DNA from: Myxococcales bacterium
GTDB lineage: Bacteria; Myxococcota_A; UBA9042
Reading direction: 5' to 3'
Assembly: GCA_023954815.1 (NCBI GenBank)
Contig: JAGSHB010000007.1
Location: 3,626-67,625, forward strand
DNA: 64,000 nt
A program made the position numbers and the translations under genes. Each line of letters begins with the position of its first letter. Position 1 is the first letter of the stretch. The notes beneath the pieces are model-generated. The model ran no database searches and was not told where the DNA came from. It saw nothing but the letters and a program-made list of their open reading frames with translations. Positions 3,167 through 48,561 of the stretch are shown in pieces.

Positions 3167-4258
3167 ATGATGACCCACCGCTGGCGAACCCTGCTTGGCA
3201 TCCTGCTGACGAGCCCCCTGATTGCGTGCGCAGAGGAGCCGTCGCCGGCCTATGAGCCAGTCCCGATGCCATTTCATCCGCTAGCAGATGCGCTTGTGCA
3301 CGTAGGGGACGAGGCGATCACCCTGCCCCTGACGACGGCCACGGTCAGCGGTCACGTCGCGATCGGTGACCTGACCGCATGCACGCCTGAGCTCACGATC
3401 CGAACAACCGGCACATCTGACACCTGCGCCCTGACCCTGACCGCGAGCAAGCAAAAAGACAGCCTCGGCCTAGCGATCACAGGGGCGACCCTTGTCGCTC
3501 GCAATCAATCGGGTGTCTGTGCGCCGCTGGCCGCTCGTTTACCGAACGGGACAGCCGACGTGGTCTATGAACTGGCCGGTGGCGACGCTTGGCTGCCCTG
3601 GGTAGAACCCAAGGAACTGAGCGCTGTGGATGGCGTGCTTGCGGTGGATAAGGTGTTGCTCGCCCTAAAGGGGACCCTCAAGCTAGTCGCCGGATCCGAT
3701 GCGTTGCAGATGCGAGATTTGAGTCTGCAGCTCGGTGGCGATATCGAGCTGACCATCGACGACAAGGTGACCTGCGCGCCCTGCACAAGCCCTGACTGCC
3801 AGAGTCCCTACCCGACCATGAGACTGCGCGATGCGCAGCCCAAGAGCGTGGCTCACAACCTGAAGTACAGCCTAGATCGGTGGCTTGGTCAGTACTTGGT
3901 GGTGATTTTGACGCAGGGATGGTGAACGAGCTGCCGGGCCCAGGCTGGGTCCTTCGATAAGATGCACAAAGAACTCACAGCCAGCGGCTACGACGTCGCC
4001 TTCGTGGGTGCGCACGGCAAGAGCGCAGACAGTCTCTCAGAGCAAAAGGCGATCTACGAGCGCATGGGCTATGCCTTGTTGCAGGAGCGAGATGAGGCGA
4101 GCCTACGAGACGTCTGGCAGACGAAAAATCGCCACGATATCTTCGTATTCGACCCAGCCGGCGGGCTCGTTGCGCAGATCCACGACACAAAGAACGCCAT
4201 GACGCCCGACGGCTACGCCAAGTTGCGGGCCAAGCTGCTTACACTCCTAAAAAAGTGA
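3167..4258 (+). CDS. Putative selenoprotein: lipoprotein with N-terminal 4-Cys domain and C-terminal UxxC thioredoxin-fold (redoxin) domain; TGA 3923-3925 read as Sec
   Basis: Lipobox LIAC. ORF 3026-3925 and ORF 3962-4258 are in the same frame, separated only by TGA. The read-through GW-U-TSC aligns with GW-C-ASC of 4404-5579. A hairpin lies just downstream of the TGA. Confidence 0.8.
3926..3955 (+). promoter_or_regulatory. Candidate bacterial SECIS element
   Basis: GGGCCCA-GGC-TGGGTCC stem-loop (3936-3952) with a G-initiated loop about 18 nt 3' of the UGA. Confidence 0.6.
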
Positions 4259-4403
4259 GTGTAGAGGCGCGAGCGTGACCTGGAAATTTACCAGATGTGC
4301 CCAATAGTTGCAGATGTATGCTGATCAACGCAGACCAATATGGTAGGGTCTTCGGGTCAAAAATATCACGTCACTGATCGGGCGTGTGGCAGCAGGAGAG
4401 ACG

Positions 4404-5579
4404 ATGAACACGGCACGGAATTTGGCACTGGCCCTCACTGCTCTGGCAGCGATGATGATGGCTGGATGCGGCGCAGAAGGCGGCGGAGCAGCGACGACAC
4501 CGCTCACCGCGACCGGCACGTTCACCGCAGGTATCGACAACAGTGAGTACACTGTCGACTACGCGGGCGCACAGGTCACGGCCGAGCTGCAGCACAAACT
4601 CACCAAGGAAGGGCAGTACGCTTGCGTCCCCTCGGTGAAGATCTCGATCACACCCAAGCACAGCGACGCAGACGACAAGTCCTGCGGGCTCGATCTGGAG
4701 TTCAAAGCTGACTTCAACGGTGAGTTGAAGCTCAAGAAAGCCAAGTTCTACGCCAAGAGCGCCATCTTCCAGGACGGCGTCGCGATTATGACCTTCCCGT
4801 GTGAGGGCTGGGCGAAAGAGCCCGCCAGCGGCGAGGTGGTCTACGAGAGTCTCGACGGCGCCGAGGGTTCGCTCAGCATGAAGCCCATCGCGCAGCCCCA
4901 AGCTGGACAGGCCAAGGCGGTGCTCAGCAGCACAGCGCTGTCGCCCAAAGGCATCGTCGACATGAAGTTCAAGGGTCGGAAGTTCAAGCTCGATCTCAGC
5001 CAGATCAAGGTCAATGGTTCGGTGACCAGCGCAGGTTCGGAGGACGTCTCCTGTGCGCAGAAGTACCAGCCGCTGCCGTTCGTGGAGCTCAAGGACATCA
5101 ACCCGGGCAGCCCGCTGCACAATCAGACCTACTCGCTGGAAGAGTTCAAGGGCAAGTACGTGGCCGTGCTCATGGGCGCTGGCTGGTGCGCTTCTTGCCT
5201 GAGCCAGACCGACTACATGCAGAAGATCAAGACCGATCTTGAGGCCCAGGGTCGCAAGGATTTCGCGATGGTCGTGATGAACGACAAGACTGCGGCAAAG
5301 CCCAACGACCAGAAGAAGATTTCGACCTGCAATACCAAAGGCAAGTGCACGATTGGTGAGAACGTGCAGTTCACTGTGTTCCAGGCTGATGGGACGTACG
5401 GGTGGAGCTCGTTTACCGACCCCAAAACCGGACAGAAAGGCAAGAAAAACGATTGCTTCATCTATGCCCCTGATGGCCGCTTCATCTTCAAGCACATCGG
5501 CAAGGGCACGGTGCAACTCGGCCAGTTCGACTCGGAAGTTCGGGCTGCGCTCAACACCAAGATCGAAGACATCCCTTAG
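4404..5579 (+). CDS. Lipoprotein with N-terminal 4-Cys domain and C-terminal CxxC redoxin (TlpA/AhpC-like fold)
   Basis: AGGAGA RBS, lipobox MAGC, GWCASC motif. Paralogue of 3167-4258 and 21694-22911. Confidence 0.85.
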   Translation: MNTARNLALALTALAAMMMAGCGAEGGGAATTPLTATGTFTAGIDNSEYTVDYAGAQVTAELQHKLTKEGQYACVPSVKISITPKHSDADDKSCGLDLEFKADFNGELKLKKAKFYAKSAIFQDGVAIMTFPCEGWAKEPASGEVVYESLDGAEGSLSMKPIAQPQAGQAKAVLSSTALSPKGIVDMKFKGRKFKLDLSQIKVNGSVTSAGSEDVSCAQKYQPLPFVELKDINPGSPLHNQTYSLEEFKGKYVAVLMGAGWCASCLSQTDYMQKIKTDLEAQGRKDFAMVVMNDKTAAKPNDQKKISTCNTKGKCTIGENVQFTVFQADGTYGWSSFTDPKTGQKGKKNDCFIYAPDGRFIFKHIGKGTVQLGQFDSEVRAALNTKIEDIP

Positions 5580-5722
5580 CCGCTCCCCCCGCCCCTGAAG
5601 AGAGGGTCGCCGCCCATTCACAACTAGCCGTTGGCACCGTACTGTGCACGCGCGTCAGCTTGTGTGGTGCATTCACCGATTCATAGCCGGCGCACGTGAT
5701 CGTGATCTGCCGGAGGTTCTAG

Positions 5723-6091
5723 ATGCTCGTCAGTCGCTCGGTTGTTGGCCTACTTTTGCTTGCAGCGCTATCGGTGATGCCAGGGTGCAGCACCGACGGA
5801 GGCGAGGGCGACCTGCCGCTCGATCGACCCTCGCAAATCGCCGCGCTGACGGCGAATTTAGCAGCGGGCGCAGCGAGCTACGAGACCAACTGTCTGGTAT
5901 GTCATGCCAAGGACGGAAAAGGCGACTCAGGGCCCAACTTGGTCTCGGGCACCGCCGCTGCGCTGCCAACCAAAGCCATGGCCAGCGTCATTCTCAACGG
6001 CAAGGGCTCCATGGGCGCCTACGACTCGCTGACCAACCAAGAGGTCGCCGACATCATTGGCCACGTGATGACCACGCTCGCGGGCAACTAG
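5723..6091 (+). CDS. Monoheme c-type cytochrome lipoprotein
   Basis: CLVCH heme motif, GPNL, distal Met in GSMGAY, lipobox MPGC. Confidence 0.9.
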   Translation: MLVSRSVVGLLLLAALSVMPGCSTDGGEGDLPLDRPSQIAALTANLAAGAASYETNCLVCHAKDGKGDSGPNLVSGTAAALPTKAMASVILNGKGSMGAYDSLTNQEVADIIGHVMTTLAGN

Positions 6092-6131
6092 CCACATTCA
6101 TCGCTGGGCCATGGCCTAGTAGGAGCTCTCC

Positions 6132-7916
6132 ATGCCCATTCGTGGTGCGTACCGTGAATTGACCGCCGCTGCCCTCATCTTGGGCATCATCCAGGGCGTC
6201 ATCATGACGGCGGCCTTTGTCTACATCGGCCTCAAGCTCGGGTTTGGCCTGTCCGGCTCCACCGTCGCCGCCATCATGGGCTTTGTGCTGCTGCGCGGGG
6301 TGATGGGCAAGGGCACGCTGGTCGAAAACAACCTCAATCAGACCATCGCATCGGGCATCAACACCGCCTCGGCTGGCGTGGTGTTTACCCTGCCCGCCTT
6401 GCTACTGATGAGCGTCAAACGCCCAGAGCTCGGCGACTTTGACCTGTGGCCCATGCTGCTCGCGGCTGTGGCGGGCTCATTCATGGGCATCGTGGTCATC
6501 ATCCCGTTGCGCAAGCAGTTTATCGAGCTCGACCGGCTGCGTTTCCCGTCGGGTATTGCGGTTGCGAGCATCCTGAAATCCCCTGGTGAAGGCGCGGTGA
6601 AGGCGCAGCTGCTCGTCGCAGGCTCATTGTTGGCCGCGGTGGGCACCATCTTGGTCAACCTCGGCATCATCCCGTCAGCTATCGATCTGAACGGCGCGTT
6701 TGGCATCCCCACGTGGTTCCCTCTGGCGATCAGTGTCAGCTTTGCAAACTTGGGCGCCGGGCTCCTGAGCGGTCGCGGCGGCCTGCCGTTCTTTCTTGGC
6801 GGCGCCTTGGCTTGGTGGGTCATCTCCCCGGTCATCACGCACGTGGGGTGGCTGCCATCGCCTGTGAACGCACCAACCGAAGCGGCGGTCTTCGCGCAGC
6901 AGAAGTTGACCATGTACGGCGAGATGATTCGCCCGCTCGGTATCGGCATGCTCATCGGTGGTGCGCTGGCTGGGGTGGTCGCCTCCTATCCTGCGCTCAA
7001 AGCGGCGCTGCGGAGCCTCTCCGTGGCCGCACAGACCGGCACTGCGGGCGGCGGCGCTGAAGAACTCTCGCCGAAAGTGCTCTACATGGGCCTCGGCGGC
7101 AGCGTGGTCGCGCTATTTTGCGCCAGCCTGCTCAGTGACCCAGGTATCGGTGTCGGCACGGCGTTGGTCATGGCGGGGGCTGGCACACTCTGGCTCGGAC
7201 TCGCTGGCCTCATTGTGGCCCAGGCCACCGGTGCCACGGACATCTCGCCGCTCTCGGGGCTGGCACTCATCGCGGTCACGCTGCTGTTTGCGATCACCGG
7301 CGGCAACATCGTCGCCTCGATTCTCATTGGCCTGACGATCTGCATCGCCTCGAACCAGTGCGCGGACATGATGAGCGACCTAAAGACCGGTCACCTCGTC
7401 GGTTCACGCCCCCGGGCACAACAGCTCGCTCAGCTGACAGTCGCCTGGGTCGGCCCGCTGGTGGCCATCGCGGTCATGTTCTTGTTGTGGCGCCAAGGTG
7501 GTGACTTGGGCGGCTTTGGCCCCCAGAGCCAGGCGTGTTTGGACGCCGCTCCCGGTTGTCTGCCCGCGCCCCAGGCCGGTGCGCTGCAGGCCATGGTCGA
7601 ATCGCTGGAAAGTGGCAAAGCCCCGCTCGATAAATACGCAGCGGGCGCGGTCCTCGGAGGCGCCCTCAGCGCGTTCCCCATCGGCGGGTTGGGCGTGCTG
7701 GTTGGCTTGGCCATGTACCTGCCCTTCGACATCACGTTTGGTTACGGCATCGGCTGTGTGGCGAGCATGGGTCTGCAAAAAGGCAAGGGTGTCAACTGGA
7801 TCGGTGATCGCCTGGTCCCCATCGCCGCTGGATTCATCATCGGCGAGGCGTTGACCAACCTGACGTGGGCGATGCTGCAAATGACAGGCGTGGTCGGCGC
7901 CGGCGGAGGTCACTGA
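6132..7916 (+). CDS. OPT/YSL family oligopeptide transporter
   Basis: Multi-TM protein with YIGLKLG, ENNLNQTIAS, LRFPSGIAVA, MSDLKTGHLVG..PRAQQLAQ and LPAPQA motifs. Confidence 0.92.
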   Translation: MPIRGAYRELTAAALILGIIQGVIMTAAFVYIGLKLGFGLSGSTVAAIMGFVLLRGVMGKGTLVENNLNQTIASGINTASAGVVFTLPALLLMSVKRPELGDFDLWPMLLAAVAGSFMGIVVIIPLRKQFIELDRLRFPSGIAVASILKSPGEGAVKAQLLVAGSLLAAVGTILVNLGIIPSAIDLNGAFGIPTWFPLAISVSFANLGAGLLSGRGGLPFFLGGALAWWVISPVITHVGWLPSPVNAPTEAAVFAQQKLTMYGEMIRPLGIGMLIGGALAGVVASYPALKAALRSLSVAAQTGTAGGGAEELSPKVLYMGLGGSVVALFCASLLSDPGIGVGTALVMAGAGTLWLGLAGLIVAQATGATDISPLSGLALIAVTLLFAITGGNIVASILIGLTICIASNQCADMMSDLKTGHLVGSRPRAQQLAQLTVAWVGPLVAIAVMFLLWRQGGDLGGFGPQSQACLDAAPGCLPAPQAGALQAMVESLESGKAPLDKYAAGAVLGGALSAFPIGGLGVLVGLAMYLPFDITFGYGIGCVASMGLQKGKGVNWIGDRLVPIAAGFIIGEALTNLTWAMLQMTGVVGAGGGH

Positions 7917-8686
7917 TGCAACGCATGATTGGGCTCTTATTGCTGTCTCTTGGTACTGGAATCGCTGCCGTCTTTGGGGCTTGGTTGCCCGGGGGCGATT
8001 CCGCTGACCATCGCGCTCGCATGGAAGCGCAGGCGCATCTCGACATGGCGACCCGGGTCGACAAAGACCTGAAGAAGACGACGGACGAAAGCGCGCGTAA
8101 ACAGCTCACCGCGCTCGCTGGTAAAGTGGGTCCCATGGCTCCCAAAGGTGCCGACGGCAAGCCCCTGGCGGCGCCGCGCGGTGCGGACGGCGTGAGCATG
8201 TGGGCGGGAGAGGCGGGGCTTCCATTTGGCCTGGGCGTGCTACTGGTCATCATCGGTGTGGTGCTGGCGCGGCGCGGCATCTCCGCAGAAGCCGCGGCCA
8301 ATCACACGGACAGTGCCACCTCCGGTACCGCAACGGGCCCCTTACTCGAGCAACTGGTGACGGAGACGGCAGGGCTCTGTGCGCAGTACACAGACAAAGA
8401 CGAGCTGCCCGACCTGATGGCCGTTCGCACGGACGTGGAGCGCGTGCAGCAACAGATCGTCTCGCCGCTTGTGGAGGGTCGTGGTCAGATCTCGCAAGAG
8501 TACGGTGTGGCTGCCTACGCCGAGGTGTTCGTGCCGTTCTCGGCAGCTGAGCGGCTGCTCAATCGCGCTTGGTCCGCTAGTGTCGACGAGTATGTCGATG
8601 AGATCGCGCCGTGCTTGGTCAAGGCCAGCGCGTCGGCGCAACAGGCCCTGGCGGCCTATCAGCTGGTCAGTAAGCAGGCGAGTTGA
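7916..8686 (+). CDS. Membrane protein (2 TM plus helical C-terminal domain), coupled to the OPT gene
   Basis: TGATG overlap with the OPT stop; two hydrophobic segments. Confidence 0.75.
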   Translation: MQRMIGLLLLSLGTGIAAVFGAWLPGGDSADHRARMEAQAHLDMATRVDKDLKKTTDESARKQLTALAGKVGPMAPKGADGKPLAAPRGADGVSMWAGEAGLPFGLGVLLVIIGVVLARRGISAEAAANHTDSATSGTATGPLLEQLVTETAGLCAQYTDKDELPDLMAVRTDVERVQQQIVSPLVEGRGQISQEYGVAAYAEVFVPFSAAERLLNRAWSASVDEYVDEIAPCLVKASASAQQALAAYQLVSKQAS

Positions 8687-8831
8687 TCTTTTTTCGCCTC
8701 GCGCGCCCCCTATGATGTATGGCCCCGGCACCAGCGTAGGTTGCCGGTGCTCCCCGGAGTCAGTGGAAGTCATGGCCCAGCGGCGCCCCCCACAATGCGA
8801 GAACGCACACATCACACAGCGTCGCCCGGCG

Positions 8832-10928
8832 ATGTGGCTCGTGGCGGTCTTGCTATGGGCCATCGTTGGATGCGCGGGCCGGACGTACGATGACGACAGC
8901 GGCGGCATCAACAGCGGCCAAGTCACGCTGGATGCCACCGTGGGCGATGGTCCCAGCACCCGAGCGCGCCTCAACCTGCTGGGCGCGTCGGTCGCCAGCC
9001 CGCACGCGTGTATGGCGACGTTGCCCAAGAAGGCCGAAGGGTGGTTCCAGGTCGATGCGCTGCGATGCCAGATAGACCCGGCTCCGTGGACAGGTGCGGT
9101 CAGTGCTCCAGCTGGCGCTGTGATCGTCGCTGAGACCTCCCTGACGGCGATCCAGGCGGCGATTGCCAAAGCGGGAACGGGCGGGGTCGTCGCTTTTGTG
9201 GGCGGCAAGACCTACGAGCTCTGCGCCCCCATCTCGCCGCTCAAAGGGCAGCGCTGGACGCGTTCGGGCGCTGGTGCTGCCATCTTCAAGCGCTGTGACG
9301 CTGTGACCACCACGCTCGCGAACGCCAGCCAAGCGGGTGCCACGGCGATCACCGTCGCTGACCCATCGAAGTTTCCTGTCGACAGCCAATTGACCGTCAT
9401 CACCGGCGCTGGGGCTCAAACCACAGGCAGCCCCCGCTCCCACCGGGTCACCAGTGTCTCCGGCAGCTCTCTCACGCTGACCCCGTCGCTAGCCCAAGCC
9501 TACCCAAGCGGCGCCAAGGTCATCTCGGCCTTCGCCCTGGTCGAGATCAGCCACGACGATGTCCAGATCGAGCGACTGACCTTCGACGGGAGCAGCGGCA
9601 AGAACGCAGGTTTCCTGGCATTTGAGACCTTCCAGTCGGTCGTCGCAAAGGGCGCTACCAACGTCCGCATCAGTCACAACGCCTTTCGCGATAGCCCGGC
9701 GGACCACGTGACCCTCCAGGGGTGCATCGACTGCGAGGTCAGCGGCAATCACATGACGGCTGCCACGGGGGCCTTCGTCGCCTTGCAGGGCACACATCAG
9801 CTGCAGATGAATGACAATCGCTGGGTCGGCGCAAAGGCGGCCACGGGCGCGATTCGGTGGGGGGGCGACAACCTGCAGGTACAGGTCGCTCGTAGCTGCC
9901 TATCCGACACGACGGGGCCAGCGTTTGGGCAACCGTTGGCGAGCGACGTGGGTCTGCGCTTCGCAGACAACGGGCTCCTGCGCGTGGGCGGTGTGCTGAC
10001 GGTCGGCAGTCCCAGCGGGCAGGTCGACGCAGCCAGTCACCTGGCTGTGGTGGGCAATTTTGGTGTCTCGGTTGGCCCGTTGACCGTCGGGCGCGTCCCG
10101 GGGGACAGCAGCGCGGCCGTGGTCACTGCCACAACCCCGCGCTGGGTGGATGTCGAGATTGGTGACAACAAGCTGCTCGGTGGATCGATCGAGGTGCATG
10201 GCTGCCGCAGCGTACGCGTCACTGGAAACCGACTTGCCGCCTGGTCGACAGCGTCGGCGCCGGACGGAACACCCGCACCTATCGAGCCGGACAAACCCAT
10301 CGATGGCGGCGGATGGGCATTGATGGCGCTACGCGGGCTGGTCGACGCACGCATAGGCGACAACCTCATCCTTGGCGGTCAGCGAGGCCTGCAGCTGGAG
10401 CAGCGCGCCGCCGGTGGGAGCCGCAACGTCACCATCGACAACAACATGCTGCTGATGCAGCGCCAGACCGGAACAACGCTCGGCGACGTCGCAGCGATGA
10501 CCAAACAACTGGCGACGGCGACGGCGATGAGCGCGATCACCCTGCGGCGCAACACGGTGTCATCGACCCTGCCCGATGGCGGCAGCACCCCGTGGGCGGT
10601 CACGGCGGCGCAGGGAACACACGTGCTCGGCAACTGTATTCAGACTCCGAACGGCGTGCGCTTGAGCAGCGGCAACGGCGATGGACCGACGACCACCATG
10701 CTCAGCAACAGCGTGGTGCCGACCGCGACCTCCGTTGGCATGCTCGGCGACGGAACCGGCCTCATCGTGACGCAAAACTGGCTAGATGGCGCCGTCTCCA
10801 AGTCCTTGCTGAACAGTAAAAAGGCCCAGGTGGGCGGCAATGTCGACGCGCTCATCGCCTGCATTCCGTGCTGGCCAAGCGCCAACCTGTGGCAACAGCT
10901 CCCTGCCCTCGTCGAGGTGACCCCGTGA
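8832..10928 (+). CDS. Right-handed parallel beta-helix (pectate lyase-like) lipoprotein
   Basis: Lipobox IVGC. Repeated N/G-rich turns (VRISHNAF, EVSGNH, VEIGDNKL, VTGNRL, IGDNLI, IDNNML). Start uncertain (8772 or 8832). Confidence 0.75.
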   Translation: MWLVAVLLWAIVGCAGRTYDDDSGGINSGQVTLDATVGDGPSTRARLNLLGASVASPHACMATLPKKAEGWFQVDALRCQIDPAPWTGAVSAPAGAVIVAETSLTAIQAAIAKAGTGGVVAFVGGKTYELCAPISPLKGQRWTRSGAGAAIFKRCDAVTTTLANASQAGATAITVADPSKFPVDSQLTVITGAGAQTTGSPRSHRVTSVSGSSLTLTPSLAQAYPSGAKVISAFALVEISHDDVQIERLTFDGSSGKNAGFLAFETFQSVVAKGATNVRISHNAFRDSPADHVTLQGCIDCEVSGNHMTAATGAFVALQGTHQLQMNDNRWVGAKAATGAIRWGGDNLQVQVARSCLSDTTGPAFGQPLASDVGLRFADNGLLRVGGVLTVGSPSGQVDAASHLAVVGNFGVSVGPLTVGRVPGDSSAAVVTATTPRWVDVEIGDNKLLGGSIEVHGCRSVRVTGNRLAAWSTASAPDGTPAPIEPDKPIDGGGWALMALRGLVDARIGDNLILGGQRGLQLEQRAAGGSRNVTIDNNMLLMQRQTGTTLGDVAAMTKQLATATAMSAITLRRNTVSSTLPDGGSTPWAVTAAQGTHVLGNCIQTPNGVRLSSGNGDGPTTTMLSNSVVPTATSVGMLGDGTGLIVTQNWLDGAVSKSLLNSKKAQVGGNVDALIACIPCWPSANLWQQLPALVEVTP

Positions 10929-11440: not shown

Positions 11441-11459
11441 AGATCTTGGGCCGCGACGA

Positions 11460-13609: not shown

Positions 13610-13801
13610 CTGAGCTCCTCGGTGCAGCTGAGCGGCGCCTTTGCCATGCGGCGGGGTCAGCGGCGGTAGAGGGTAGTGCAGGCATGTTCGTTTGTTGAGC
13701 CGTCGTAGGTCATGATTACGTATTTTTGCGCTAGGCTGCCGAGGTTGGCGGCCGCTCCCGCCTCCTCGACCTTCACTCTTTGTTCCAGGCGACAGCAGAC
13801 G

Positions 13802-15316
13802 ATGCGAGTAACGTTCATTGGATACGGCACAGAGCAGCTGGGTATCAGCCAACTGTCCGCCATCGCCAGGCACCGGGGCCACGACGTCTCCCTCGCGTTC
13901 ACCGCCGCGCTGTTCAACGATCATTATAACCTCGACGTGCCCTGGCTCGCGCCGCTCTTTGACGAGAAGGACCGCCTCGTCGACGACATCGTCCGGCTCA
14001 ACCCCGATCTGCTGGCCTGCTCACCGCTGACCAACACCTGGGGATGGATGCAGAGCATGTTGGCCGCCGTACGGAAGCGACTGCCAAATCTGCGTGTGAT
14101 TGTCGGCGGGGTGCACGCGACGGCGGCGCCAGAACGGATGTTGGCGCTCTCTGATGTGGACTATGTGGTCAGCGGTGAGGGCGACTTGGCGTTTCCGGCG
14201 CTGCTCGATGCCTTGGCCGATGGCGGGCCGACGGAGCCTATCGACAACCTGCTCTTCACCGACAGGCACGGCGCGGTGATTCGCGGCAAGCAGGCGGGGT
14301 TCGTGCAAGACCTCGATACACTGCCGGCCTTCGACAAACGGCTGTGGGAAGACCACCTGCGCTTGGGCGACATCTACCTCACCATGGCAGGGCGGGGTTG
14401 TCCGTTTCGCTGCACCTTTTGCTTCAACTCCTTTTTCGCCAGCCTGCCAGACGGTCGCAAGGGCAAGTACGTGCGAATGCGGAGCGTCGACCATGTGATG
14501 GCGGAGCTCCTGGCGGCCAAGAAACGCTACAACCTCAAGCTGGTTGACTTTGAGGATGACGTTTTTACGGTCGACAAGAAGTGGCTCAAGCGCCTTTTGG
14601 ACCGCTATCGCCGCGAGATCGCGGTGCCGTTCATCTGCCTGACCCATCCCCGCTATATGGACGATGACATCGCGCGCTGGCTGGCCGACGCCGGTTGTAC
14701 GTGGGTGCAAATGGGCGTGCAGTCGGCCGATGAAGACTTTCGGGTCAAGCATCTGCAGCGGCCCGAAGCCGATGACGCGGTCGAGGTCGCGATGCGTGCG
14801 CTGCGGCGCTATGGCATCGAGGTCAAGGTCGACCACATCTTCGGCCTGCCCGATGAGCCGCTGTCTGCCCAGGACAAGGCGCTCAAGCTCTATGCCCACC
14901 TCGATGCGGGCCGGATCCAGACCTTTTGGGCGAATCTCCTGCCCGGCACGGTGATGTTTGAGCAGGAACGAGCGACGGGCCGGCTCAGTCAGGAACAGGC
15001 CGAGCGGATTCTCGATGGGCACGGCGGGGAGTATTTTCGTGCACAGGGTGCACGGGGATCGGAGCGGGACAGTCACCTAGCCTACGAGACGGTCTTTCGG
15101 CTGATGCCGCTGTTGCCGACGGGGCTCCGCGACCAGCTGCAAGCCTCCCACGTCCGGTGGCTGCCAGGTACGGCCAAACAGGTGGTCGGCATCGGCGCAG
15201 ATCTGCTCAATGCGGCGGTACGGCGCAATCCGGACCATGGATTCTATGCGCGGCACTATGCCGATCAGCTGCGGCGATTTGGTCAACGTCGGGTGAGGCG
15301 CACGCTCAATCTGTGA
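13802..15316 (+). CDS. Cobalamin-binding-domain radical SAM protein
   Basis: N-terminal B12-binding-like region (GGVHAT...GEGD), GRGCPFRCTFC (CxxxCxxC), DDVF, GVQS. Confidence 0.92.
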   Translation: MRVTFIGYGTEQLGISQLSAIARHRGHDVSLAFTAALFNDHYNLDVPWLAPLFDEKDRLVDDIVRLNPDLLACSPLTNTWGWMQSMLAAVRKRLPNLRVIVGGVHATAAPERMLALSDVDYVVSGEGDLAFPALLDALADGGPTEPIDNLLFTDRHGAVIRGKQAGFVQDLDTLPAFDKRLWEDHLRLGDIYLTMAGRGCPFRCTFCFNSFFASLPDGRKGKYVRMRSVDHVMAELLAAKKRYNLKLVDFEDDVFTVDKKWLKRLLDRYRREIAVPFICLTHPRYMDDDIARWLADAGCTWVQMGVQSADEDFRVKHLQRPEADDAVEVAMRALRRYGIEVKVDHIFGLPDEPLSAQDKALKLYAHLDAGRIQTFWANLLPGTVMFEQERATGRLSQEQAERILDGHGGEYFRAQGARGSERDSHLAYETVFRLMPLLPTGLRDQLQASHVRWLPGTAKQVVGIGADLLNAAVRRNPDHGFYARHYADQLRRFGQRRVRRTLNL

Positions 15317-15328
15317 TCATTGGGTCCG

Positions 15329-17095
15329 CTACTTTGGCAACGTGATCTTCAGTAGACGCCACGCTTCGGTCTTGTCGCGAGTCGTCCATCGGGTGATCTC
15401 CGTCAGCTTGCCACCCCTAACAGCGAGCGCGATGGGCACTGCGGCGGCGATGGCTGGGCCGTCTTCGAGCGGACTGATCGCGATGCGCGGTGGGTTCATG
15501 GCCAGCAGCAGGTAGTGAGTGCCCGGCGGCCAGCGGTTGAGGATCGCGCTCCAGGCAGCTGTATGTCGACGCAGCGGCTCGCGGCCGTCCTTGCCAAACT
15601 CACGCAGCGCCGCGGACAGATTGTGGGTGCGTAGCACGCCACCGCTCAAGGTCTCGAAGACGCCGGCTTCGGCGTAGGTGGTCGTCCAAAATGTGGTGAT
15701 ACCCCGCCCCACAAGCGCGCTCGCGACCCGACGTTGCAACGACAGATCGAACATCGGCTGCTGCGCGGCAAAGACAGCCGCTCGGAGGCGCTGGGCCTGC
15801 TGCAGCTGCCCGCCAACCGTCACCGCTAGCAGCCCGCCGAGCACAACAGAGGTGATGCTGCGGGTGCGCTGACCACGGGTGCGAGCAGCACGCCAGACGA
15901 GCCACCCTGCGACGCCAGCCACCACAGGTACCCACGGCGCAAGCAGCAAGAACAGGGACATACCGCGGTAGTACAGGCCCAGGTAGAGCAGCCCCACGAC
16001 CAGCGCGCCCAACCCCAGCATGCGTACAGGCCGCCCCGCACGGCGCACCCAGGGCATGGTCACGACCACCGCGCAGGCCAGCCCGAGACTCACGCCCGCC
16101 ACCGGCCACGCAGGCGCCGAGGGCACCGCGCCGATGACCTGCGCGGCCCAGAAGTCCCCTGCCGCGCCGAAGGCGTCGACGAAATGACGGGCGAAAAAGG
16201 CGATGCGTTCGTCCGAAAACGCCTGCACCGGCGACGGCAGCTTGTTGACCCGCGCAGCCAACGGCCCGCGGCTCGGCGCCAGCAGGAACCAGGCCACGTG
16301 GGCTGTCATCGGCAGCGTGAAGGCGAGGCCGATAGGAAGCCAAAGGCGCACGGGCGGCAGCTGTCTGAAGGCCGTAGCGGCGACGAGCGCTGCGATGAGC
16401 AGCCAGCCAGAGGTGAGCTTTGACGCGGCGCCCACACCAAAGAGCAGACCGCACAGCAGCCACCAGCGCGTCGCGTGACGTTGGCCGTGGGCTACACGCA
16501 TCGCGGCCAACACGGCCAGCAGGGGGGCTAGGCCAGCGAGCTGCTCATCCGGGCGAGACCAGTGAAAAATGAGGGCAAAATGGGGCGACGAAGCGGCGAT
16601 CAGCGCAGCGGCCCAGGCAGCCCGGCGACCGGCGATGGGCTCGGTGAGTTTGAACACCATGGCGAGGGTAAGGAGGCCGAGGGCGATGGAGAGCAGGCGG
16701 CCAAAGAGGATGCCGATGCCCACAGACCCGCCCATCGCGGAGCCGATCCCATCACCCACTGCGATCGCCGCCCGCCACGGCAGCGACGTCAGCGCGCCCA
16801 TGTGCCCGTCGATCATCAGCGGCAGGTGAAAGCCGCCTGGCAGCGACCAAGTCCATACGGGCAGCTCGGTCGACGCGCGCAGGCCAAGCTGCGCGGGAGC
16901 GGTGAGCGGCAATTCGCCAGCGTTGGGCACCATACGGCTGAGCGGCACAGGGACGACCGGCGCGACCTCCTCGAGATGTGTACCCATGGAGAGACTGAGC
17001 GGCAGGGTTTGCGCGACGAAGAGCAGCGCGAGCAGGCCGGCGGCAACCCTCGCTCGGCGGTCGTTCGGCAAGCTGGGCTGGGTGGGGGAGGTCAT
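15329..17095 (-). CDS. GT-C fold membrane glycosyltransferase (ArnT/PMT-like)
   Basis: Many TM helices. Periplasmic acidic motif HLEE, H.GAL.S loop, GRLLS..LGLLTL, ASKLT. Start approximate. Confidence 0.7.
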   Translation of the reverse strand: MTSPTQPSLPNDRRARVAAGLLALLFVAQTLPLSLSMGTHLEEVAPVVPVPLSRMVPNAGELPLTAPAQLGLRASTELPVWTWSLPGGFHLPLMIDGHMGALTSLPWRAAIAVGDGIGSAMGGSVGIGILFGRLLSIALGLLTLAMVFKLTEPIAGRRAAWAAALIAASSPHFALIFHWSRPDEQLAGLAPLLAVLAAMRVAHGQRHATRWWLLCGLLFGVGAASKLTSGWLLIAALVAATAFRQLPPVRLWLPIGLAFTLPMTAHVAWFLLAPSRGPLAARVNKLPSPVQAFSDERIAFFARHFVDAFGAAGDFWAAQVIGAVPSAPAWPVAGVSLGLACAVVVTMPWVRRAGRPVRMLGLGALVVGLLYLGLYYRGMSLFLLLAPWVPVVAGVAGWLVWRAARTRGQRTRSITSVVLGGLLAVTVGGQLQQAQRLRAAVFAAQQPMFDLSLQRRVASALVGRGITTFWTTTYAEAGVFETLSGGVLRTHNLSAALREFGKDGREPLRRHTAAWSAILNRWPPGTHYLLLAMNPPRIAISPLEDGPAIAAAVPIALAVRGGKLTEITRWTTRDKTEAWRLLKITLPK

Positions 17096-17379
17096 GGGGC
17101 TCGGAGTGGTTGGGCGTTCTGGGCGGATGCTGGGCGTGGGGTGGGCGCTCGGCGTGGAGGGCAGCTGCGGCCCCACGATACGGGAGATGGGCCGGGAGGT
17201 CTTCTGCCTGGTGCTGCGCCGTTCTGGCGTGGGGGCGCGCGAGGCTGCAAGGCCACGGAGAGGGCCGTTGCTGGGGAGTACCCACTAATGTGCCTGTCGT
17301 GACCTAGAACGGCTGTAGCGGGCTCCCAGGGCCCTTTCCGGGCATTTTGGGGTCGGAAATGAGGTGAATTTCGTGCCCG

Positions 17380-17409
17380 CAGCAGCACAACAGCAGCACA
17401 ACAGCAGCA
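17380..17409. repeat. 11-bp tandem repeat (CAGCAGCACAA x2.7)
   Basis: Directly visible downstream of the tRNA terminator hairpin. Confidence 0.85.
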
Positions 17410-17411
17410 AG

Positions 17412-17434
17412 GCGTGCCTCTCATGGAGGCACGC
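17412..17434 (-). terminator. Hairpin downstream of tRNA-Arg, probable terminator
   Basis: GCGTGCCTC-TCATG-GAGGCACGC perfect 9-bp stem about 35 nt after the tRNA 3' end; weak U-tract. Confidence 0.5.
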
Positions 17435-17469
17435 CCGCACAACCGTCTGATCTGACTTGATAACTTTAG

Positions 17470-17543
17470 CACGCCCAGCAGGGCTCGAACCTGCGACCCT
17501 CGGCTTAGAAGGCCGATGCTCTATCCAGCTGAGCTATGGGCGC
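17470..17543 (-). tRNA. tRNA-Arg (anticodon UCU)
   Basis: GCGCCCA acceptor stem, TAGCTCAGCTGGATAGAGC D arm, TCGGC-CTTCTAA-GCCGA anticodon arm, GGTTCGAGCCC T arm. CCA is not encoded (CTA follows). Confidence 0.97.
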
Positions 17544-17636
17544 TCTGCCTCTCCGGCGAACCGTGAGAGCCATGCTGCGCGACCGTCCGTTGCTGACGAC
17601 GCGCGACGCTGTATCTGCCCCGTCCGGGCGACGTCG

Positions 17637-18302
17637 TCAACCACCACCTGCCAACCACTCGACCAGACTCGCCACTGCCCACCACTCCGCCGGCACCACT
17701 AGCCCCTGCGCGGCGCCATGCGCCACCGCTGTGATCCACACGCCAACACACCCCGTCACCGCGGCGCGTAGCACCTCGATATGCAGCCACCGCTTGCGAC
17801 CATCCGGGCTCAAGCGCGCCCGCGTCCGCGCCGCCTGGGCCATGTCTCGCACCACCAGAGCCCGGGCTAACAGCCCCGTCGCCAGGGCGCCCGCCCAGAG
17901 GTAGCGCAGGTGCCACAGCTGATCGCCGCTGAGCACCGTGCCCCAGAATTGAGCGTCCATATGGCTGTGGGCCAGGTGACAATGCAGTCCGTCGACAGCC
18001 CGAGCGAATGCGGCCGCGAAAAGCACCGCGCTCAACAAGCCGACGGCGATCTTGGGTTTGGCGTGGTCACCTGTGCGCAGCGTCACATCACCGGAGCGCC
18101 ACCGCACCAGCGCCAGCATCGAATCGAGGATCAGGGCGTCAACGAGATAGCCGGCGGTGGTCGGCCAGGCGAGTTGGTTGTAGCCGGGCAGTTGGGACGC
18201 AGCGCCATAGCGCCAGAGCCACCACAGCGTCCACAGGCTCAGCAACCAGGGCGACGGCAGCCAGGCGAGGCGTTGCGCGAGGGAGGTGCGAGAGGCGCTC
18301 AC
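17637..18302 (-). CDS. Hypothetical multi-pass membrane protein
   Basis: GTGA overlap with the cysteine synthase stop; about 5 hydrophobic segments. Confidence 0.6.
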   Translation of the reverse strand: MSASRTSLAQRLAWLPSPWLLSLWTLWWLWRYGAASQLPGYNQLAWPTTAGYLVDALILDSMLALVRWRSGDVTLRTGDHAKPKIAVGLLSAVLFAAAFARAVDGLHCHLAHSHMDAQFWGTVLSGDQLWHLRYLWAGALATGLLARALVVRDMAQAARTRARLSPDGRKRWLHIEVLRAAVTGCVGVWITAVAHGAAQGLVVPAEWWAVASLVEWLAGGG

Positions 18303-19282
18303 TCGTCCCACAAGCGGGTGGAGAAGTAGCGCTCACCGGTGTCGGGCAGCAGGGTCACGACGACGCCGGACTCACCGCGAGCGGCAATCTCCCGGGCCAC
18401 GCGGATGGCAGTCCACACGTTCGCGCCGGAGCTCTGTCCGCCGAAGAGGCCGGCTTTGGCGAGGGTCTGGCTGACTTCCCAGGCTTCGTCTACGTCCAGG
18501 TCCCAATCGCGATCGGCGAGCTCTTGATCCAAGATCTCGGGCACGTGGTCATCTGGATCACGCAGCGGCTTGAGGCCCTCAACACCGGGGAAGGCGTCCG
18601 GGATCAGCAGCTCGATCTGCACATTCGGGTTCTCTTGTTTGAGCCGACGCCCAACCCCAGTCAGCACGCCGCCAGTACCGACGCCGTAGACAAAGTGCGT
18701 GATCTTGCCGCCGGTCTGCTCCCAGATCTCAGCGCCAGTCGTGTCGAAGTGGGCCTGCCAGTTGCCGTCGTTGCTGTACTGATCGCAGTAGAAGTACTTG
18801 TCGGGATCGGCCGCGACCAAGCGCCGCACGTGCCTGATCGCCTCGTCATAGCCGTCGTGGGCTGAGGTGTGCGTCACCTTCGCGCCGTGGGCCCGGAGGC
18901 GCTTGAGACGCTCCGTAGAAGCGTTGTCGGGGATCACGATCTCCACGTCGTACCCCAGCGCCCCGCCGATGACCGCGTAGGCGATGCCAGCGTTGCCCGA
19001 GGACGAATCGATGATGGTCTTGCCCTTGGTGAGCCGACCGTCAGCGATGCCCTGCGCCAACATCCGCAGCACGGGCCGATCCTTGACCGAACCGCCGGGA
19101 TTGAAGCTCTCCATCTTGGCCCAGATCTCGACGCCCGGATGGCTGTCCTGCCAAGAATTGATCCGCACCAGCGGCGTATTGCCCACCAAACCCAGCGCGG
19201 GCACCTCAGAGATAAGGGGTAGCACTGCAGGGACGGGCGGGACGTGCGTGAACACCGTTGCGTTGGACAGGGCGTCGGTCAT
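18299..19282 (-). CDS. Cysteine synthase family PLP enzyme (CysM/CysK-like)
   Basis: VGNTPLV, FNPGGSVKDR (PLP Lys), SSSGNAGIA, GVGTGG, GQSSGAN, PDTGERYFS. Confidence 0.93.
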   Translation of the reverse strand: MTDALSNATVFTHVPPVPAVLPLISEVPALGLVGNTPLVRINSWQDSHPGVEIWAKMESFNPGGSVKDRPVLRMLAQGIADGRLTKGKTIIDSSSGNAGIAYAVIGGALGYDVEIVIPDNASTERLKRLRAHGAKVTHTSAHDGYDEAIRHVRRLVAADPDKYFYCDQYSNDGNWQAHFDTTGAEIWEQTGGKITHFVYGVGTGGVLTGVGRRLKQENPNVQIELLIPDAFPGVEGLKPLRDPDDHVPEILDQELADRDWDLDVDEAWEVSQTLAKAGLFGGQSSGANVWTAIRVAREIAARGESGVVVTLLPDTGERYFSTRLWDE

Positions 19283-19475
19283 GGCAACCTCATGGCTCGG
19301 TACGCTGCCGCAATGGTCAGCGTGGGGCGGGTACAGTTCAAGCTGCGACGCGGCGTGTCAACCGAGCGGAGTCTGTGCATTTCGGGGTGAACGCGCCCCG
19401 GTGATTGCGGAGAGACAACAGGCAAAGCTCGCGCTTGATGTGGATCGGGTGGTACGCTCAGCCCTGGAGGTACGC

Positions 19476-20213
19476 ATGGCCCATGATGACGAGCTGCTAC
19501 AGATTGAAGCTGAATCAGCGTTCATCGCCGAGCAGCAGCTTGGTGTAGACCCCGGTCAGCTCGCGCAACGTCTCGCCGGCGCTCGCGCGGCCGCCATGGG
19601 TGATCGCATGGCTGATCGCTACGCCTCGGCTGGTACGCGCATGCTCGCAGATGCCGCGCCGACCCGCCTCGATACGGACCTCATCGACCGCCTCGCCGCC
19701 GTCGGCTTTCAACGGGACCAGCTGCGTAAAGTGCGTGTTCACCGTGGCCTCAAAGCCCACGCAGCCGCCGACGCGCTCGGTGCCCGCGCCTTCGCTATGG
19801 GCGACGCCGACATCTTCTTCGGCCAAGGCGAGTTCAACCCTGCCACCCGCGAGGGTCGCGCCGTCATCGCCCACGAAATCGCCCACATCGCCCCGCCAAC
19901 GACCCAAGGCGGCATGCCCGCCAGCTACTCGGCAGCGTCCAGCACCCCCGTGCTCAACGAGCGCAAACGCGGTGACGAAGATGCGGCCGGCGAAGAAGCC
20001 CACGAGGAACGTGCGCGCGAAGCCGAGGCCATGGTCTACGCTCAAGAGGACGAAGGCGGCGCAAGCCCGACCCTCGCTGGCGGCAACATGCCCAACATGG
20101 AGCCGCGCGAAAGTCCGGCACCGAGCTTCACCGCGCATCACCTGGAAGCGAAAGTGATGGAGATCATCACCAAGCTCGAGCGCAGTCAGATCGAGCGCCG
20201 CGGCCTGTTCTAG
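19476..20213 (+). CDS. DUF4157 (eCIS core-like) domain protein
   Basis: VRVH...AADALGARAFAMGDADIFFGQGEFNP.T.EG..VIAHEIAH. GGAGG RBS before ATG 19476. Confidence 0.85.
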   Translation: MAHDDELLQIEAESAFIAEQQLGVDPGQLAQRLAGARAAAMGDRMADRYASAGTRMLADAAPTRLDTDLIDRLAAVGFQRDQLRKVRVHRGLKAHAAADALGARAFAMGDADIFFGQGEFNPATREGRAVIAHEIAHIAPPTTQGGMPASYSAASSTPVLNERKRGDEDAAGEEAHEERAREAEAMVYAQEDEGGASPTLAGGNMPNMEPRESPAPSFTAHHLEAKVMEIITKLERSQIERRGLF

Positions 20214-20263
20214 GTCTCTCTCTTAGACCCAACGCAAACACGCAGACACAGGCCAAGCGGCCG

Positions 20264-21562
20264 CTACGGATTCGTGGCGCTGCTCGTGTGCTCGGCGAAG
20301 TGGCTATCCCACAGCTGCATCTCAGCGAAAAACAGGCGCCCCGCATCCGTCGGCTCGGCGTGGGTCAACACCGTCTCGGCGCCGTCGCGAATCTTCCCCA
20401 CAATGACATCGAACCGGCGCGTCCATGAGGGCTGGGTTGACCAGGCGTGGGCGTCGTCGCGCATCCGCTCGTACAACAGCGCCACCGGTTGAAAGGCGTG
20501 TACCGCCAAGATCACCCCGTGCAGCGGCCTGGGATCGGGGCGCACCGGCGAGGAAAACAGCGGCGCGAACGCGTTATGCAACAAGGGATCGAGGTTGAAC
20601 GCGGCGTTGATCTTGTTGTGCTGAAACTCGTGGATCACCGCTTCGACCATGGTCATGTCGTTGGGATGCAGGGTCATGTAGATGGCGCCAATGTACTCCT
20701 GATAGCTCGCCGATAGGTGACGCTCGGGCTCGAAGCCGACGGGCACGATCAGCGTCGCGACGAGCCGCAGCTCCTCGGCAAAGTGCGGCAGGTAGCGCGC
20801 CATCATCGCCCAACAACGCTGCAGGCTCTTGGTCCACTCCGCGGCGGTCTTATCCCCCAAAGACAGGGTGTTGCCCTGCTTGTCTGGATGGGCCTCAAAA
20901 TCACTGAGGGGGTTATTGTCACTGCAGGCGAGGTACACGCCCGGCACGATCTCGTGGTACGGCCGACTCGCCCCGGCTGGCAGGTCCGCGTCCGGCAAGA
21001 GCGCCACTCGCTCCTGAGAATCGGCTGTTTCGATCTGCACGGCGCCCGGCTCAAAGTGCAGGGCCGTGACGCCAGCGCCCAATGGCAGCAGCAGGTTGAG
21101 TCGAATGGAGCGCAGGTCCCGCAGCGCTGCGGGATACGGCGCAATCCAGTGAATCCCACCGGCCGGCAGCGCGCCTTGGGCAGCGAGTTCCAACAGCACC
21201 AACGCACTGAGCTCCCGCACCCACGCCGATAGCGCTGCGTGATCGCCATTCGGCCCTTGATGACGAAGCGCACACTCGATCAACACCGAGTGGGTCGGCA
21301 GACGCAGAATTTGCGCTGCACGGCCGCGATCACGGGCAGAAAGTTGCCGCCACGCTGTCACCGCATCGACGTAGAGCTGCCGATCGTGCTCGGCCAACAG
21401 CCGCACCGGCACCGACTGAAAGGCGCGCTCTAGCCGCCGCACCCAACGAGACAGAACATGTCGCACGGTGTGGGTATCTCTGCGGGCGATGGTCAGCTCG
21501 TCGAGGGTGAGCGCCTTCTTCTGCAAGGCGGTGCGACGGCGGGTGTGGGAGCGAGTCGACAT
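20264..21562 (-). CDS. HEXXH-motif domain protein (aKG-HExxH family)
   Basis: SAS..EYIGAIY, EAVIHEFQH.K, SPVRPDPRPLHGVILAVHAF. Confidence 0.85.
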   Translation of the reverse strand: MSTRSHTRRRTALQKKALTLDELTIARRDTHTVRHVLSRWVRRLERAFQSVPVRLLAEHDRQLYVDAVTAWRQLSARDRGRAAQILRLPTHSVLIECALRHQGPNGDHAALSAWVRELSALVLLELAAQGALPAGGIHWIAPYPAALRDLRSIRLNLLLPLGAGVTALHFEPGAVQIETADSQERVALLPDADLPAGASRPYHEIVPGVYLACSDNNPLSDFEAHPDKQGNTLSLGDKTAAEWTKSLQRCWAMMARYLPHFAEELRLVATLIVPVGFEPERHLSASYQEYIGAIYMTLHPNDMTMVEAVIHEFQHNKINAAFNLDPLLHNAFAPLFSSPVRPDPRPLHGVILAVHAFQPVALLYERMRDDAHAWSTQPSWTRRFDVIVGKIRDGAETVLTHAEPTDAGRLFFAEMQLWDSHFAEHTSSATNP

Positions 21563-21693
21563 GGATCCTCAAGGCGGGCTAAACGAGCAATGAAACGGCG
21601 CACCCACACGGTTTTGGACCCGGTGGCCAACACTTCGTATCATCCCCCGACAACGAACGCCTACCCTCTCCCGCCACGACGAGGTCGACCCTG

Positions 21694-22911
21694 ATGAATG
21701 CTCTCTCCCGGCTCCCACGCTTTCTCCTCATTTTGTCCTGCATCGCCGCCTTTGCCTGCGGGAGCGACGAGACGGGCGAGACCACACCCACCGGCGCCAA
21801 ACTGAGCGGCTCGTTTTCGGCATCCGTCGATGGCTCAGACGTGACCGTGGACTACGCTGGCGGCAAGTTGGTCGCGGAGCTGGTGCACAAGATCAACACC
21901 AGCGAAAAGGGCTACGGGTGCATCACCTCGGTGTTCCTCTCGGTCGCCAAGGCCGACGGCAGCTGCGCGTTGGAGCTGACGTACCAACCCGGCGCGGGAG
22001 ATGGGCTGGCGCTGTCCAAAGCCAGCTTCTTTGCCGTGGGGGGCGACAAGCAGGGCGGCATCCTGATCAACCCGATCAAGTGCGCGGGATTCCCAGGTGC
22101 AGAGGGGAACTCAGAGGTCGAGTGGACCCTCGCCGGCGGCGACAGCAACCTGTCGGTCAAGCCTGTGAAACCGGGTGAGGCGAACAAAAAGTCGGCCTCG
22201 TTGGCGGACCAAGATCTGAAGCTCAGCGGCAAAATCAAACTGAAGAAGGGCGGCAAGCTCTTCGAGCTCGATCTCAGCAGCATTCGCATCCAAGGCACGC
22301 TGACTAGCGTCGGCAGCACGCAAGTCTCCTGCGGCACGGCGAAAGGCGTCGAGGTCTGCCCCAAGGGCGTCACCTACGGCAACAAGGTGGGCACCTATGT
22401 GCGTCGGCCACTGGGTGCCTACCACTGCACAGACGACAGCATCTACGATCCGGGCGAGCTCTGTGGCAGCCCCGCGCAGGTCCTCGTGGCGTACCAGCAC
22501 TGGGTCACGGAAAAGGACAACTACGGCGGTAAGGACGTGCTCGGCGGCCTGGGCAAGACCGTCACCAACACCAAAGATCTAGGGGTGATCTTCGTGGTCC
22601 TGACCGGCAAGCAAAAAGTCGTGGTGAAGAACGCGGAAGGCAAGTTCGAGGCGAGCGGCCCAGCGCCGACCCAGGCGGACTGCGCTGAGATCAAGAAGCT
22701 GTACAACCTGCCCGATAGCGTGGTCATGCTCTACGACAAGGACAAAGCGTTGACGAGCACGGAAAAAATGCCGGTGGGCGCGGGCTTCACCCCTGGTATC
22801 GCGGTGGCGTCGTCAACGGGTAAAATCGTGCAGTTGCTGCCGGACAGCGCGGGCAAGATGGACCAAGGGATGCTCGACGCGGCGATTCAAGCGGCCGTAG
22901 ACGCAGAGTAG
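21694..22911 (+). CDS. Lipoprotein paralogue of 4404-5579 with a degenerate redoxin domain
   Basis: Lipobox AFAC. Near-colinear N-domain (TVDYAGG.L.AEL.HK). HWVTE is found where WCxxC is expected. Confidence 0.8.
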   Translation: MNALSRLPRFLLILSCIAAFACGSDETGETTPTGAKLSGSFSASVDGSDVTVDYAGGKLVAELVHKINTSEKGYGCITSVFLSVAKADGSCALELTYQPGAGDGLALSKASFFAVGGDKQGGILINPIKCAGFPGAEGNSEVEWTLAGGDSNLSVKPVKPGEANKKSASLADQDLKLSGKIKLKKGGKLFELDLSSIRIQGTLTSVGSTQVSCGTAKGVEVCPKGVTYGNKVGTYVRRPLGAYHCTDDSIYDPGELCGSPAQVLVAYQHWVTEKDNYGGKDVLGGLGKTVTNTKDLGVIFVVLTGKQKVVVKNAEGKFEASGPAPTQADCAEIKKLYNLPDSVVMLYDKDKALTSTEKMPVGAGFTPGIAVASSTGKIVQLLPDSAGKMDQGMLDAAIQAAVDAE

Positions 22912-48511: not shown

Positions 48512-48561
48512 CGCTGGAGCCTCCGCAATCGCTACGGTCGATTTCTTCGGCAACGCCCACC

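Follow-up and report, generated by a model that had tools for sequence, protein, structure and literature searches.

The 64,000-nucleotide window analyzed here, a stretch of one contig from a Myxococcales bacterium, carries three lipoprotein genes, referred to as A, B, and C, whose products share an N-terminal four-cysteine beta domain (the N-domain) followed by a thioredoxin-fold domain. Gene A is, on strong sequence support, a genuine selenoprotein that has gone unannotated. The explanation that best fits all of the evidence, and one that we consider likely, is that A and B are independent, lipid-anchored, extracytoplasmic thiol(selenol):disulfide oxidoreductases, that C is non-catalytic, and that the N-domain is a general module. 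A first-pass annotation of the window had proposed a joint envelope system in which one adaptor domain is paired with a fast selenocysteine (Sec) catalyst, a Cys backup, and a non-catalytic member. The three active-site states that it described do exist, but the evidence does not support a system of three parts with Cys as the backup. Features of the three genes are collected in Table 1.

Table 1. Positions in the window of genes A, B, and C, their features, and two neighboring genes
Feature	Position	Strand	Description
Gene A	3167-4258	+	363-amino-acid predicted lipoprotein and selenoprotein; N-domain and thioredoxin fold; GWUTSC
A signal peptide and lipobox	3167-3229	+	LIAC, Cys21; Cys invariant in four orthologs
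A N-domain	3230-3805	+	Conserved Cys C72, C87, C118, C203
A thioredoxin-fold domain	3806-4255	+	AhpC-TSA/SelP_N/TUGYCR-like
A in-frame TGA (predicted Sec, U253)	3923-3925	+	Aligned to the first Cys of the B CxxC
A selenocysteine insertion sequence (SECIS) hairpin	3935-3953	+	Stem 3936-3942/3946-3952, loop GGC, 13 nt after UGA
Gene B	4404-5579	+	391-amino-acid predicted lipoprotein; N-domain 4470-5069, then thioredoxin fold
B active site GWCASC	5187-5189 (Cys262), 5196-5198 (Cys265)	+	
Gene C	21694-22911	+	405-amino-acid predicted lipoprotein; N-domain 21760-22359, then thioredoxin fold without CxxC
C HWVTE	22498-22512	+	Aligned with the A and B active site
Small c-type cytochrome lipoprotein	5723-6091	+	Neighbor, syntenic with A at four loci
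OPT-family transporter	6132-7916	+	Neighbor, syntenic with A at four loci

The case for Sec in A draws on the genome, on the codon itself, and on the RNA that follows it. The genome (6.44 Mb, 63% GC) encodes selA, selB, selD, and a tRNA-Sec. All gene calls for database relatives of A stop at ...VVILTQGW, and A itself is held in databases as a truncated form of 251 amino acids; on the relatives' contigs the codon at this point is TGA, and the frame runs on into a conserved TSCKAQAGPFD... domain. Only one GTDB-species genome contains A, that of a congener of the window genome (JAUIAC010000103.1), and it has TGA there too. Both the TGA and the frame beyond it are conserved at five A loci (the window, L012, L014, L015, and L019), across which the downstream part retains about 50% protein identity, and at two distant A-like loci (L020 and L021). 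The hairpin of A is found again, with unchanged spacing from the UGA, in two other UxxC lipoprotein redoxin genes of this genome (on contigs C187 and C124) and in four further Sec genes that come from different genera of the family. In the set of 11 Sec genes, 88.6% of the alignment cells are paired and six of eight pairs show compensatory changes, values that none of 500 shuffles attained; slid registers collapse. The apical loop reads GGC, GGU, or GUC and lies roughly 18 nt after the UGA. The Cys paralog B has no such hairpin. A scan of the A SECIS region matched no Rfam family, and single-sequence folding of that region gave an unremarkable z-score, so the case for the hairpin is one of comparative covariation only. 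A promoter and terminator scan returned nothing useful. The features by which bacterial selenoproteins are recognized (Sec machinery, a conserved UGA aligned with Cys, coding conservation downstream, and a covarying stem-loop) were thus all found for A, in agreement with the first-pass reading of this codon. Co-occurrence with the Sec machinery, a check suggested along with that reading, was uninformative because SelA is present in 24 of 24 family genomes.

Several other Sec genes came to light alongside A. The selD gene of this genome (contig C154, 15282-16220, minus strand) has an in-frame TGA, so SelD would itself be a selenoprotein here. Contig C187 (about 48100-49083, plus strand, TGA at 48760) encodes a lipoprotein redoxin reading AGWUSFC, in which a Cys-rich stretch and an acidic, low-complexity D/A/T linker replace the four-Cys N-domain, and contig C124 (about 20950-21598, plus strand, TGA at 21302) encodes one reading AAWUSFC that is without the N-domain; both genes have the SECIS apex CCCAGGCUGGG, as in A. 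At L022 (genome G139, contig C40), the gene downstream of an N-domain/UPTC redoxin (about 2150-2750 of the locus, plus strand) encodes an HMA-like domain with two in-frame TGA codons (GATUMSUPNS). UxxU replaces CxxC in this domain, which is fused to a thioredoxin domain (WCGPC); the protein resembles catalogued UxxU metal-binding selenoproteins. With no fewer than three UxxC lipoprotein redoxins in the window genome, and many more across its family, the list of unannotated selenoproteins grows for a marine lineage that has been little studied.

We compared the three proteins (A translated from 3167 to 4255 with TGA read as U, B from 4404 to 5576, and C from 21694 to 22908) by profile and by pairwise alignment. 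Profile-profile comparison with hhalign, using ortholog sets of 4 sequences for A, 23 for B, and 9 for C, gave E values of 1.2e-32 for A-B, 3.7e-46 for C-B, and 7.7e-14 for A-C, from which it follows that all three are homologous across the N-domain and that A and B are homologous across the C-terminal domain too. Pairwise BLASTP aligned B with C over the N-domain (E = 5e-32) and A with B over the end of the N-domain and the redoxin domain (E = 1e-17), and reached just E = 0.03 for A with C. The significance of these alignments had been named in advance as one point on which the proposed family could fail, and in the profile comparisons it held for all three pairs. Each protein has an N-terminal signal peptide with a lipobox at its end (LIAC with Cys21 in A, MAGC with Cys22 in B, and AFAC with Cys22 in C). 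The lipobox Cys of C is invariant in nine orthologs, where the motif is mostly L-x-G-C, and in a further alignment conservation of the lipobox Cys is at least 90%; the lipoprotein call draws on the sequences and on the A and C ortholog alignments. MAFFT places the four N-domain Cys in register (C74, C94, C133, and C217 in B; C76, C91, C130, and C213 in C; those of A in Table 1). These lipoboxes, the four Cys motifs, and the WUTSC, WCASC, and HWVTE sites were all as the first-pass annotation had described them, the Cys motifs exactly so. The four Cys make up half of the eight invariant columns in a nine-sequence N-domain alignment, and all four are kept in 118 of 123 near-full-length matches from a library of 1.84 billion proteins, an agreement far above chance. 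We conclude from these comparisons that A, B, and C are true paralogs with a common N-terminal four-Cys beta domain.

In AlphaFold models, the N-domain is an all-beta structure of about 190 residues with about 14 strands and no helices (predicted local distance difference test [pLDDT] about 85-95), in keeping with its earlier description as a beta domain. It is rare, with 119 clusters at E ≤ 1e-3 in a profile search of 1.84 billion representatives, and it has no match in Pfam, NCBIfam, or PDB sequences; a sequence-profile search of the PDB returned a chance match alone. A Foldseek search of the PDB with the two-domain models, which is dominated by the thioredoxin part, gave PsbO as the only match outside the thioredoxin fold, at a probability of 0.6 and a meaningless template modeling (TM) score of 0.13-0.17. 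Structure prediction followed by Foldseek, one of the checks proposed for this family, therefore found a thioredoxin fold in the C-terminal domains and no PDB analog for the N-domain, and the claim that the N-domain is undescribed fits the lack of any Pfam, NCBIfam, or PDB entry that matches it. It is a new conserved lipoprotein domain family that, at about 119 clusters, deserves a Pfam or NCBIfam model.

The idea that this domain is an adaptor for redox enzymes fared less well. Close N-domain clusters have only Redoxin, AhpC-TSA, or SelP_N partners. However, distant copies, with the four Cys retained, precede Kelch, RCC1, C-type lectin, FGE-sulfatase, Lcl_C, PKD, DUF4215, and other domains, which argues for a general lipoprotein module and against a redox adaptor. 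We therefore read the N-domain, on domain architecture, as a general module, close to the membrane, in the lipoproteins of this lineage. The domain is probably held by two structural disulfides among its four conserved Cys; one A-like protein has lost Cys2 and Cys3 together, a hint that the pairs may be C2-C3 and C1-C4. A broader proposal, which we put forward tentatively and would not expect to hold in full, is that the N-domain is a new fold and a lineage-specific membrane-proximal, perhaps surface-display, module for the lipoproteins of a marine, Myxococcota-like family, with cargoes that include Sec and Cys redoxins, pseudo-redoxins, Kelch propellers, lectins, and FGE-sulfatase-like enzymes, and that its redoxin cargo has switched between Cys and Sec repeatedly and, on one occasion, turned into a pseudo-enzyme rich in Cys whose new conserved site is PAPTxx[DE]C.

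The C-terminal domain is a thioredoxin fold in all three proteins, as the earlier term redoxin-like implied, with Pfam carrying the assignment for A and B and the superposition of the AlphaFold model on ResA alone carrying it for C. In Pfam, A matches AhpC-TSA (PF00578) at 29.9 bits against a cut-off of 26 (6e-7) and B matches Redoxin (PF08534) at 32.6 bits against 26.6 (8e-8), and the C-terminal domain of C has no Pfam match. SelP_N falls just below its cut-off on A (23.0 versus 23.2 bits) and is matched by 5 of 45 close N-domain family members, with a best E value of 1.5e-11. NF053656 is the best NCBIfam match for A and B as well as for the other redoxin paralogs of the genome, but its scores of 34-67 bits fall short of the cut-off of 100; A scores 50.0, B scores 34.2, and C has no match to this model. 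The corresponding TUGYCR-type motif is absent, A reading GWUTSCR and B GWCASCL, and the TlpA/ResA/DsbE models NF047696, NF002854, and TIGR00385 were also missed (11-25 bits versus 123-230). AlphaFold models of B (pLDDT 87) and C (pLDDT 80) have ResA/DsbE/TlpA-like proteins as their best PDB matches in Foldseek (TM 0.71-0.78), with B at 0.71-0.75 and C superposing on ResA at 0.76-0.78 (E = 4e-5). The features of the TlpA/ResA/DsbE fold, namely, a thioredoxin fold with an N-terminal beta-hairpin, a central insertion, and CxxC at helix 1, are present by this match.

Given this fold, A and B most likely function, by analogy, as thiol/selenol:disulfide oxidoreductases. In the chemistry that we infer for them, in direction, substrates, and electron donor alike, SelB guided by the SECIS hairpin would decode the UGA at 3923-3925 as Sec, which would place a selenolate at the attacking position of UxxC, at the N terminus of helix alpha-1, where B has an ordinary CxxC. 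The N-terminal Sec or Cys would then attack a substrate disulfide or sulfenate, the Cys at +3 would resolve the mixed bond, and the enzyme, presumed to lie outside the cytoplasm, would be recycled by a CcdA/DsbD-type electron donor in the membrane or by a small thiol. One DsbD_TM protein is encoded elsewhere in the genome and was counted for the electron-donor step. Three observations weigh against our interpretation of A, B, and C. First, the redoxin domains score below curated cut-offs for all named families except AhpC-TSA (A) and Redoxin (B), so that chemistry of the TlpA/ResA type is assigned by analogy. Second, an Arg of A in RHDIFVFD (R322, invariant) recalls what we take to be the Arg strand of peroxiredoxins, so that peroxidase chemistry is possible. 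Third, C330 of C, in PAPTxx[DE]C, is conserved and lies where helix alpha-2 begins, close to the canonical site, and the label non-catalytic may therefore be wrong.

The second of these observations bears on the reading of A, and perhaps B, as a selenol or thiol peroxidase, peroxiredoxin (Prx)-like or glutathione peroxidase (GPx)-like, that detoxifies peroxide in the envelope. The above-cut-off match of A to AhpC-TSA, its near-match to SelP_N, and the presence of peroxiredoxins and GPx among the Foldseek matches (TM 0.55-0.61) all fit this reading, and the Global Ocean Sampling (GOS) survey's authors file the nearest known selenoproteins under Prx-like 2 (PMC2398784). However, ResA, DsbE, and TlpA structures superpose better (TM 0.71-0.75), the motif is UxxC or CxxC at the thioredoxin position rather than PxxxTxxC, which the sequences of A and B do not contain, and B lacks the Arg, with KKND at that place. 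We consider a peroxidase unlikely, though a serious alternative, and continue to favor thiol(selenol):disulfide exchange.

Distribution and phylogeny bear on whether A, B, and C belong together. The N-domain occurs in 23 of 301 genomes of the phylum. Of these 23, 18 belong to the window genome's own family (24 genomes sampled), with one to four copies apiece; the genome search proposed for the N-domain thus showed it to be concentrated in one Myxococcota-like family. A maximum-likelihood tree of 43 proteins with N-domain and thioredoxin domain comprised 9 Sec forms, 21 Cys forms, and 13 without CxxC, one of the last a decayed copy. The A clade is all Sec (seven rows, support 99/98). Clade B holds four Cys and two Sec forms (GWUASC, from two genera), including a Sec/Cys sister pair within one genome, and there are further Cys clades besides. 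A, B, and C fall in old, separate clades. The series of Sec, Cys, and lost active sites on one scaffold, including the sister pair from one genome, is a natural one that should be useful for asking why Sec is used over Cys in extracytoplasmic redox enzymes.

Two further observations concern relatives of the Cys forms. Contig C156 (4057 to about 5080, minus strand) encodes a Cys-type GWCASC lipoprotein with a redoxin domain 65% identical to that of B, and its N terminus is a different small Cys-rich domain with an acidic linker, an extension of a type that precedes the N-domain in the longer B-family homologs P0015, P0019, and P0021. On contig C21 of genome G204, two copies of VSDWCNSC type (L046 and L048, at 19248 and 32767) lie 13 kb apart; the C-terminal domain of the L048 copy is unreadable and out of frame, and this copy is probably a decayed duplicate.

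The 12 rows of the C clade, all without CxxC, are monophyletic (support 100/100) and sister to a VSDWCxSC Cys clade, and they share a conserved PAPTxx[DE]C motif where helix 2 begins. C has four extra invariant Cys (C222, C245, C257, and C330). The C clade appears to descend from a Cys-type ancestor by a single loss of CxxC, with the fold retained and four other conserved Cys acquired, and C is most likely, as a prediction, a non-catalytic binding protein or pseudo-enzyme. The earlier description of C as a redoxin-like domain without an active site agrees with its model on ResA and its lack of CxxC. Two C-type proteins, at L024 (genome G229, contig C18) and L052 (genome G139, contig C82), carry, following the degenerate active-site region, an insertion rich in Cys (…CGGCDDGGTCY…CAKPDSDCAAGCG…).

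We next weigh the proposal of a single envelope redox system to which A, B, and C are dedicated. In it, all three would dock through the shared N-domain onto the same partner, as a fast Sec enzyme, its Cys backup for times of scarce selenium, and a dead member with a regulatory role. The three proteins have this domain in common and are its sole carriers in the window genome, A and B are same-strand neighbors at three loci, and the same trio is found in the congener G284. Yet the trio occurs in only 2 of 24 family genomes, namely, the window genome and G284, and another congener (G104) has C with two other Cys paralogs, of VSDWC type. A and B are 25% identical and fall in old clades, Sec forms occur within the B clade, and one locus (L014) has A without an adjoining B, which tells against B as a backup for A. 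In addition, C lies 16 kb from A and B, the two neighborhoods being unrelated and each conserved separately, and the N-domain precedes non-redox domains too. We judge the joint system improbable and see no new kind of system revealed here; independent A and B enzymes remain the reading that we prefer.

The neighborhoods themselves differ in what they offer. The order glgB (minus strand), A, B, cytochrome c, OPT transporter, orf273 is kept at three loci, and at one more without B, but this synteny says little because the loci are close relatives (OPT 88-92% identical). C is flanked by a 432-amino-acid HExxH protein and a 410-amino-acid protein, an arrangement kept in another contig. The HExxH protein (20264-21562, minus strand, VIHEFQHNK) lies next to C in divergent orientation, has no Pfam match, and is 69% identical in L016. 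An eCIS_core (DUF4157-like) protein (18984-20213, plus strand) stands beside a PALP enzyme (18299-19282, minus strand), and this pair also occurs in L016. The small cytochrome c and OPT transporter, syntenic with A at four loci, could suggest a metal or metalloid role for the UxxC and CxxC domains that is linked to the cytochrome (delivery of copper as in Sco, or binding of Hg or Se), and Sco (1xzo) is among the fold matches (TM 0.54-0.55); given that these matches are weaker than those to ResA and that synteny within so narrow a clade has little weight, we think a metal function very unlikely. Finally, it is almost inconceivable that the TGA in A is a real stop, leaving a truncated N-domain-only lipoprotein and a decayed or separately translated redoxin fragment, since against the gene calls that end there in every database copy and the lack of an Rfam SECIS match stand the conserved codon and downstream frame at five loci, its alignment with the catalytic Cys, the covarying hairpin, the complete Sec machinery, and a downstream part without its own start codon or ribosome-binding-site context at the junction.

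Among known systems, the TlpA/ResA/CcmG (DsbE) proteins are the nearest in structure to A, B, and C, with ResA, DsbE, and a Bacillus anthracis thiol-disulfide oxidoreductase (TDOR) as best fold matches (TM 0.71-0.78), and they are likewise membrane tethered and extracytoplasmic with CxxC at the same position. They differ in sequence (15-25 bits versus cut-offs of 170-230), in anchoring, since a lipid and a large beta domain rather than a transmembrane helix would tether A, B, and C, and in that Sec replaces the attacking Cys in A and no ccm or res genes are adjacent. Etrx1 and Etrx2 of Streptococcus pneumoniae are lipoprotein-anchored thioredoxin-fold reductases, and one of the two, Etrx2 (4hqz), turns up as a fold match (TM 0.71), but they are Gram-positive and without an N-terminal beta domain or Sec forms. 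The N-terminal domain of selenoprotein P (PF04592) is likewise a UxxC thioredoxin-fold domain; that protein, however, is eukaryotic and secreted, with a Sec-rich C-terminal tail and neither lipobox nor N-domain.

The closest comparison is with the redoxin- and Prx-like UxxC selenoproteins with Cys homologs, a kind already catalogued (PMC13188914, PMC2398784). GOS Prx-like 2 and NF053656 (redoxin_TUGYCR) have, like A and B, a thioredoxin fold in which UxxC or CxxC opens helix 1, an L-x-D-x-N/Q-P-x-S strand motif before UxxC, a marine origin, and weak similarity to SelP_N, and GOS Prx-like 2 sequences (pfam04592-like, ...LEDLNPTS...FTUGTC...) in Dataset S1 have the same layout (PMC2398784). The fusion partners of GOS Prx-like 2 and 3 (Unknown_2, Unknown_3, and Secretin_N-like), considered as a possible earlier description of the N-domain, bear no resemblance to it. 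GWUTSC, GWUSFC, and GWUASC were not found among those GOS supplement sequences covered by a motif search (PMC2398784). The family described here is set apart by its motif, GWU(T/A/N)SC as opposed to TUG(Y/T)C, by scores of 34-67 bits versus 100, and by its lipobox and four-Cys N-domain. On these likenesses and differences, we class its redoxin part as a new subfamily of the catalogued marine UxxC selenoprotein kind.

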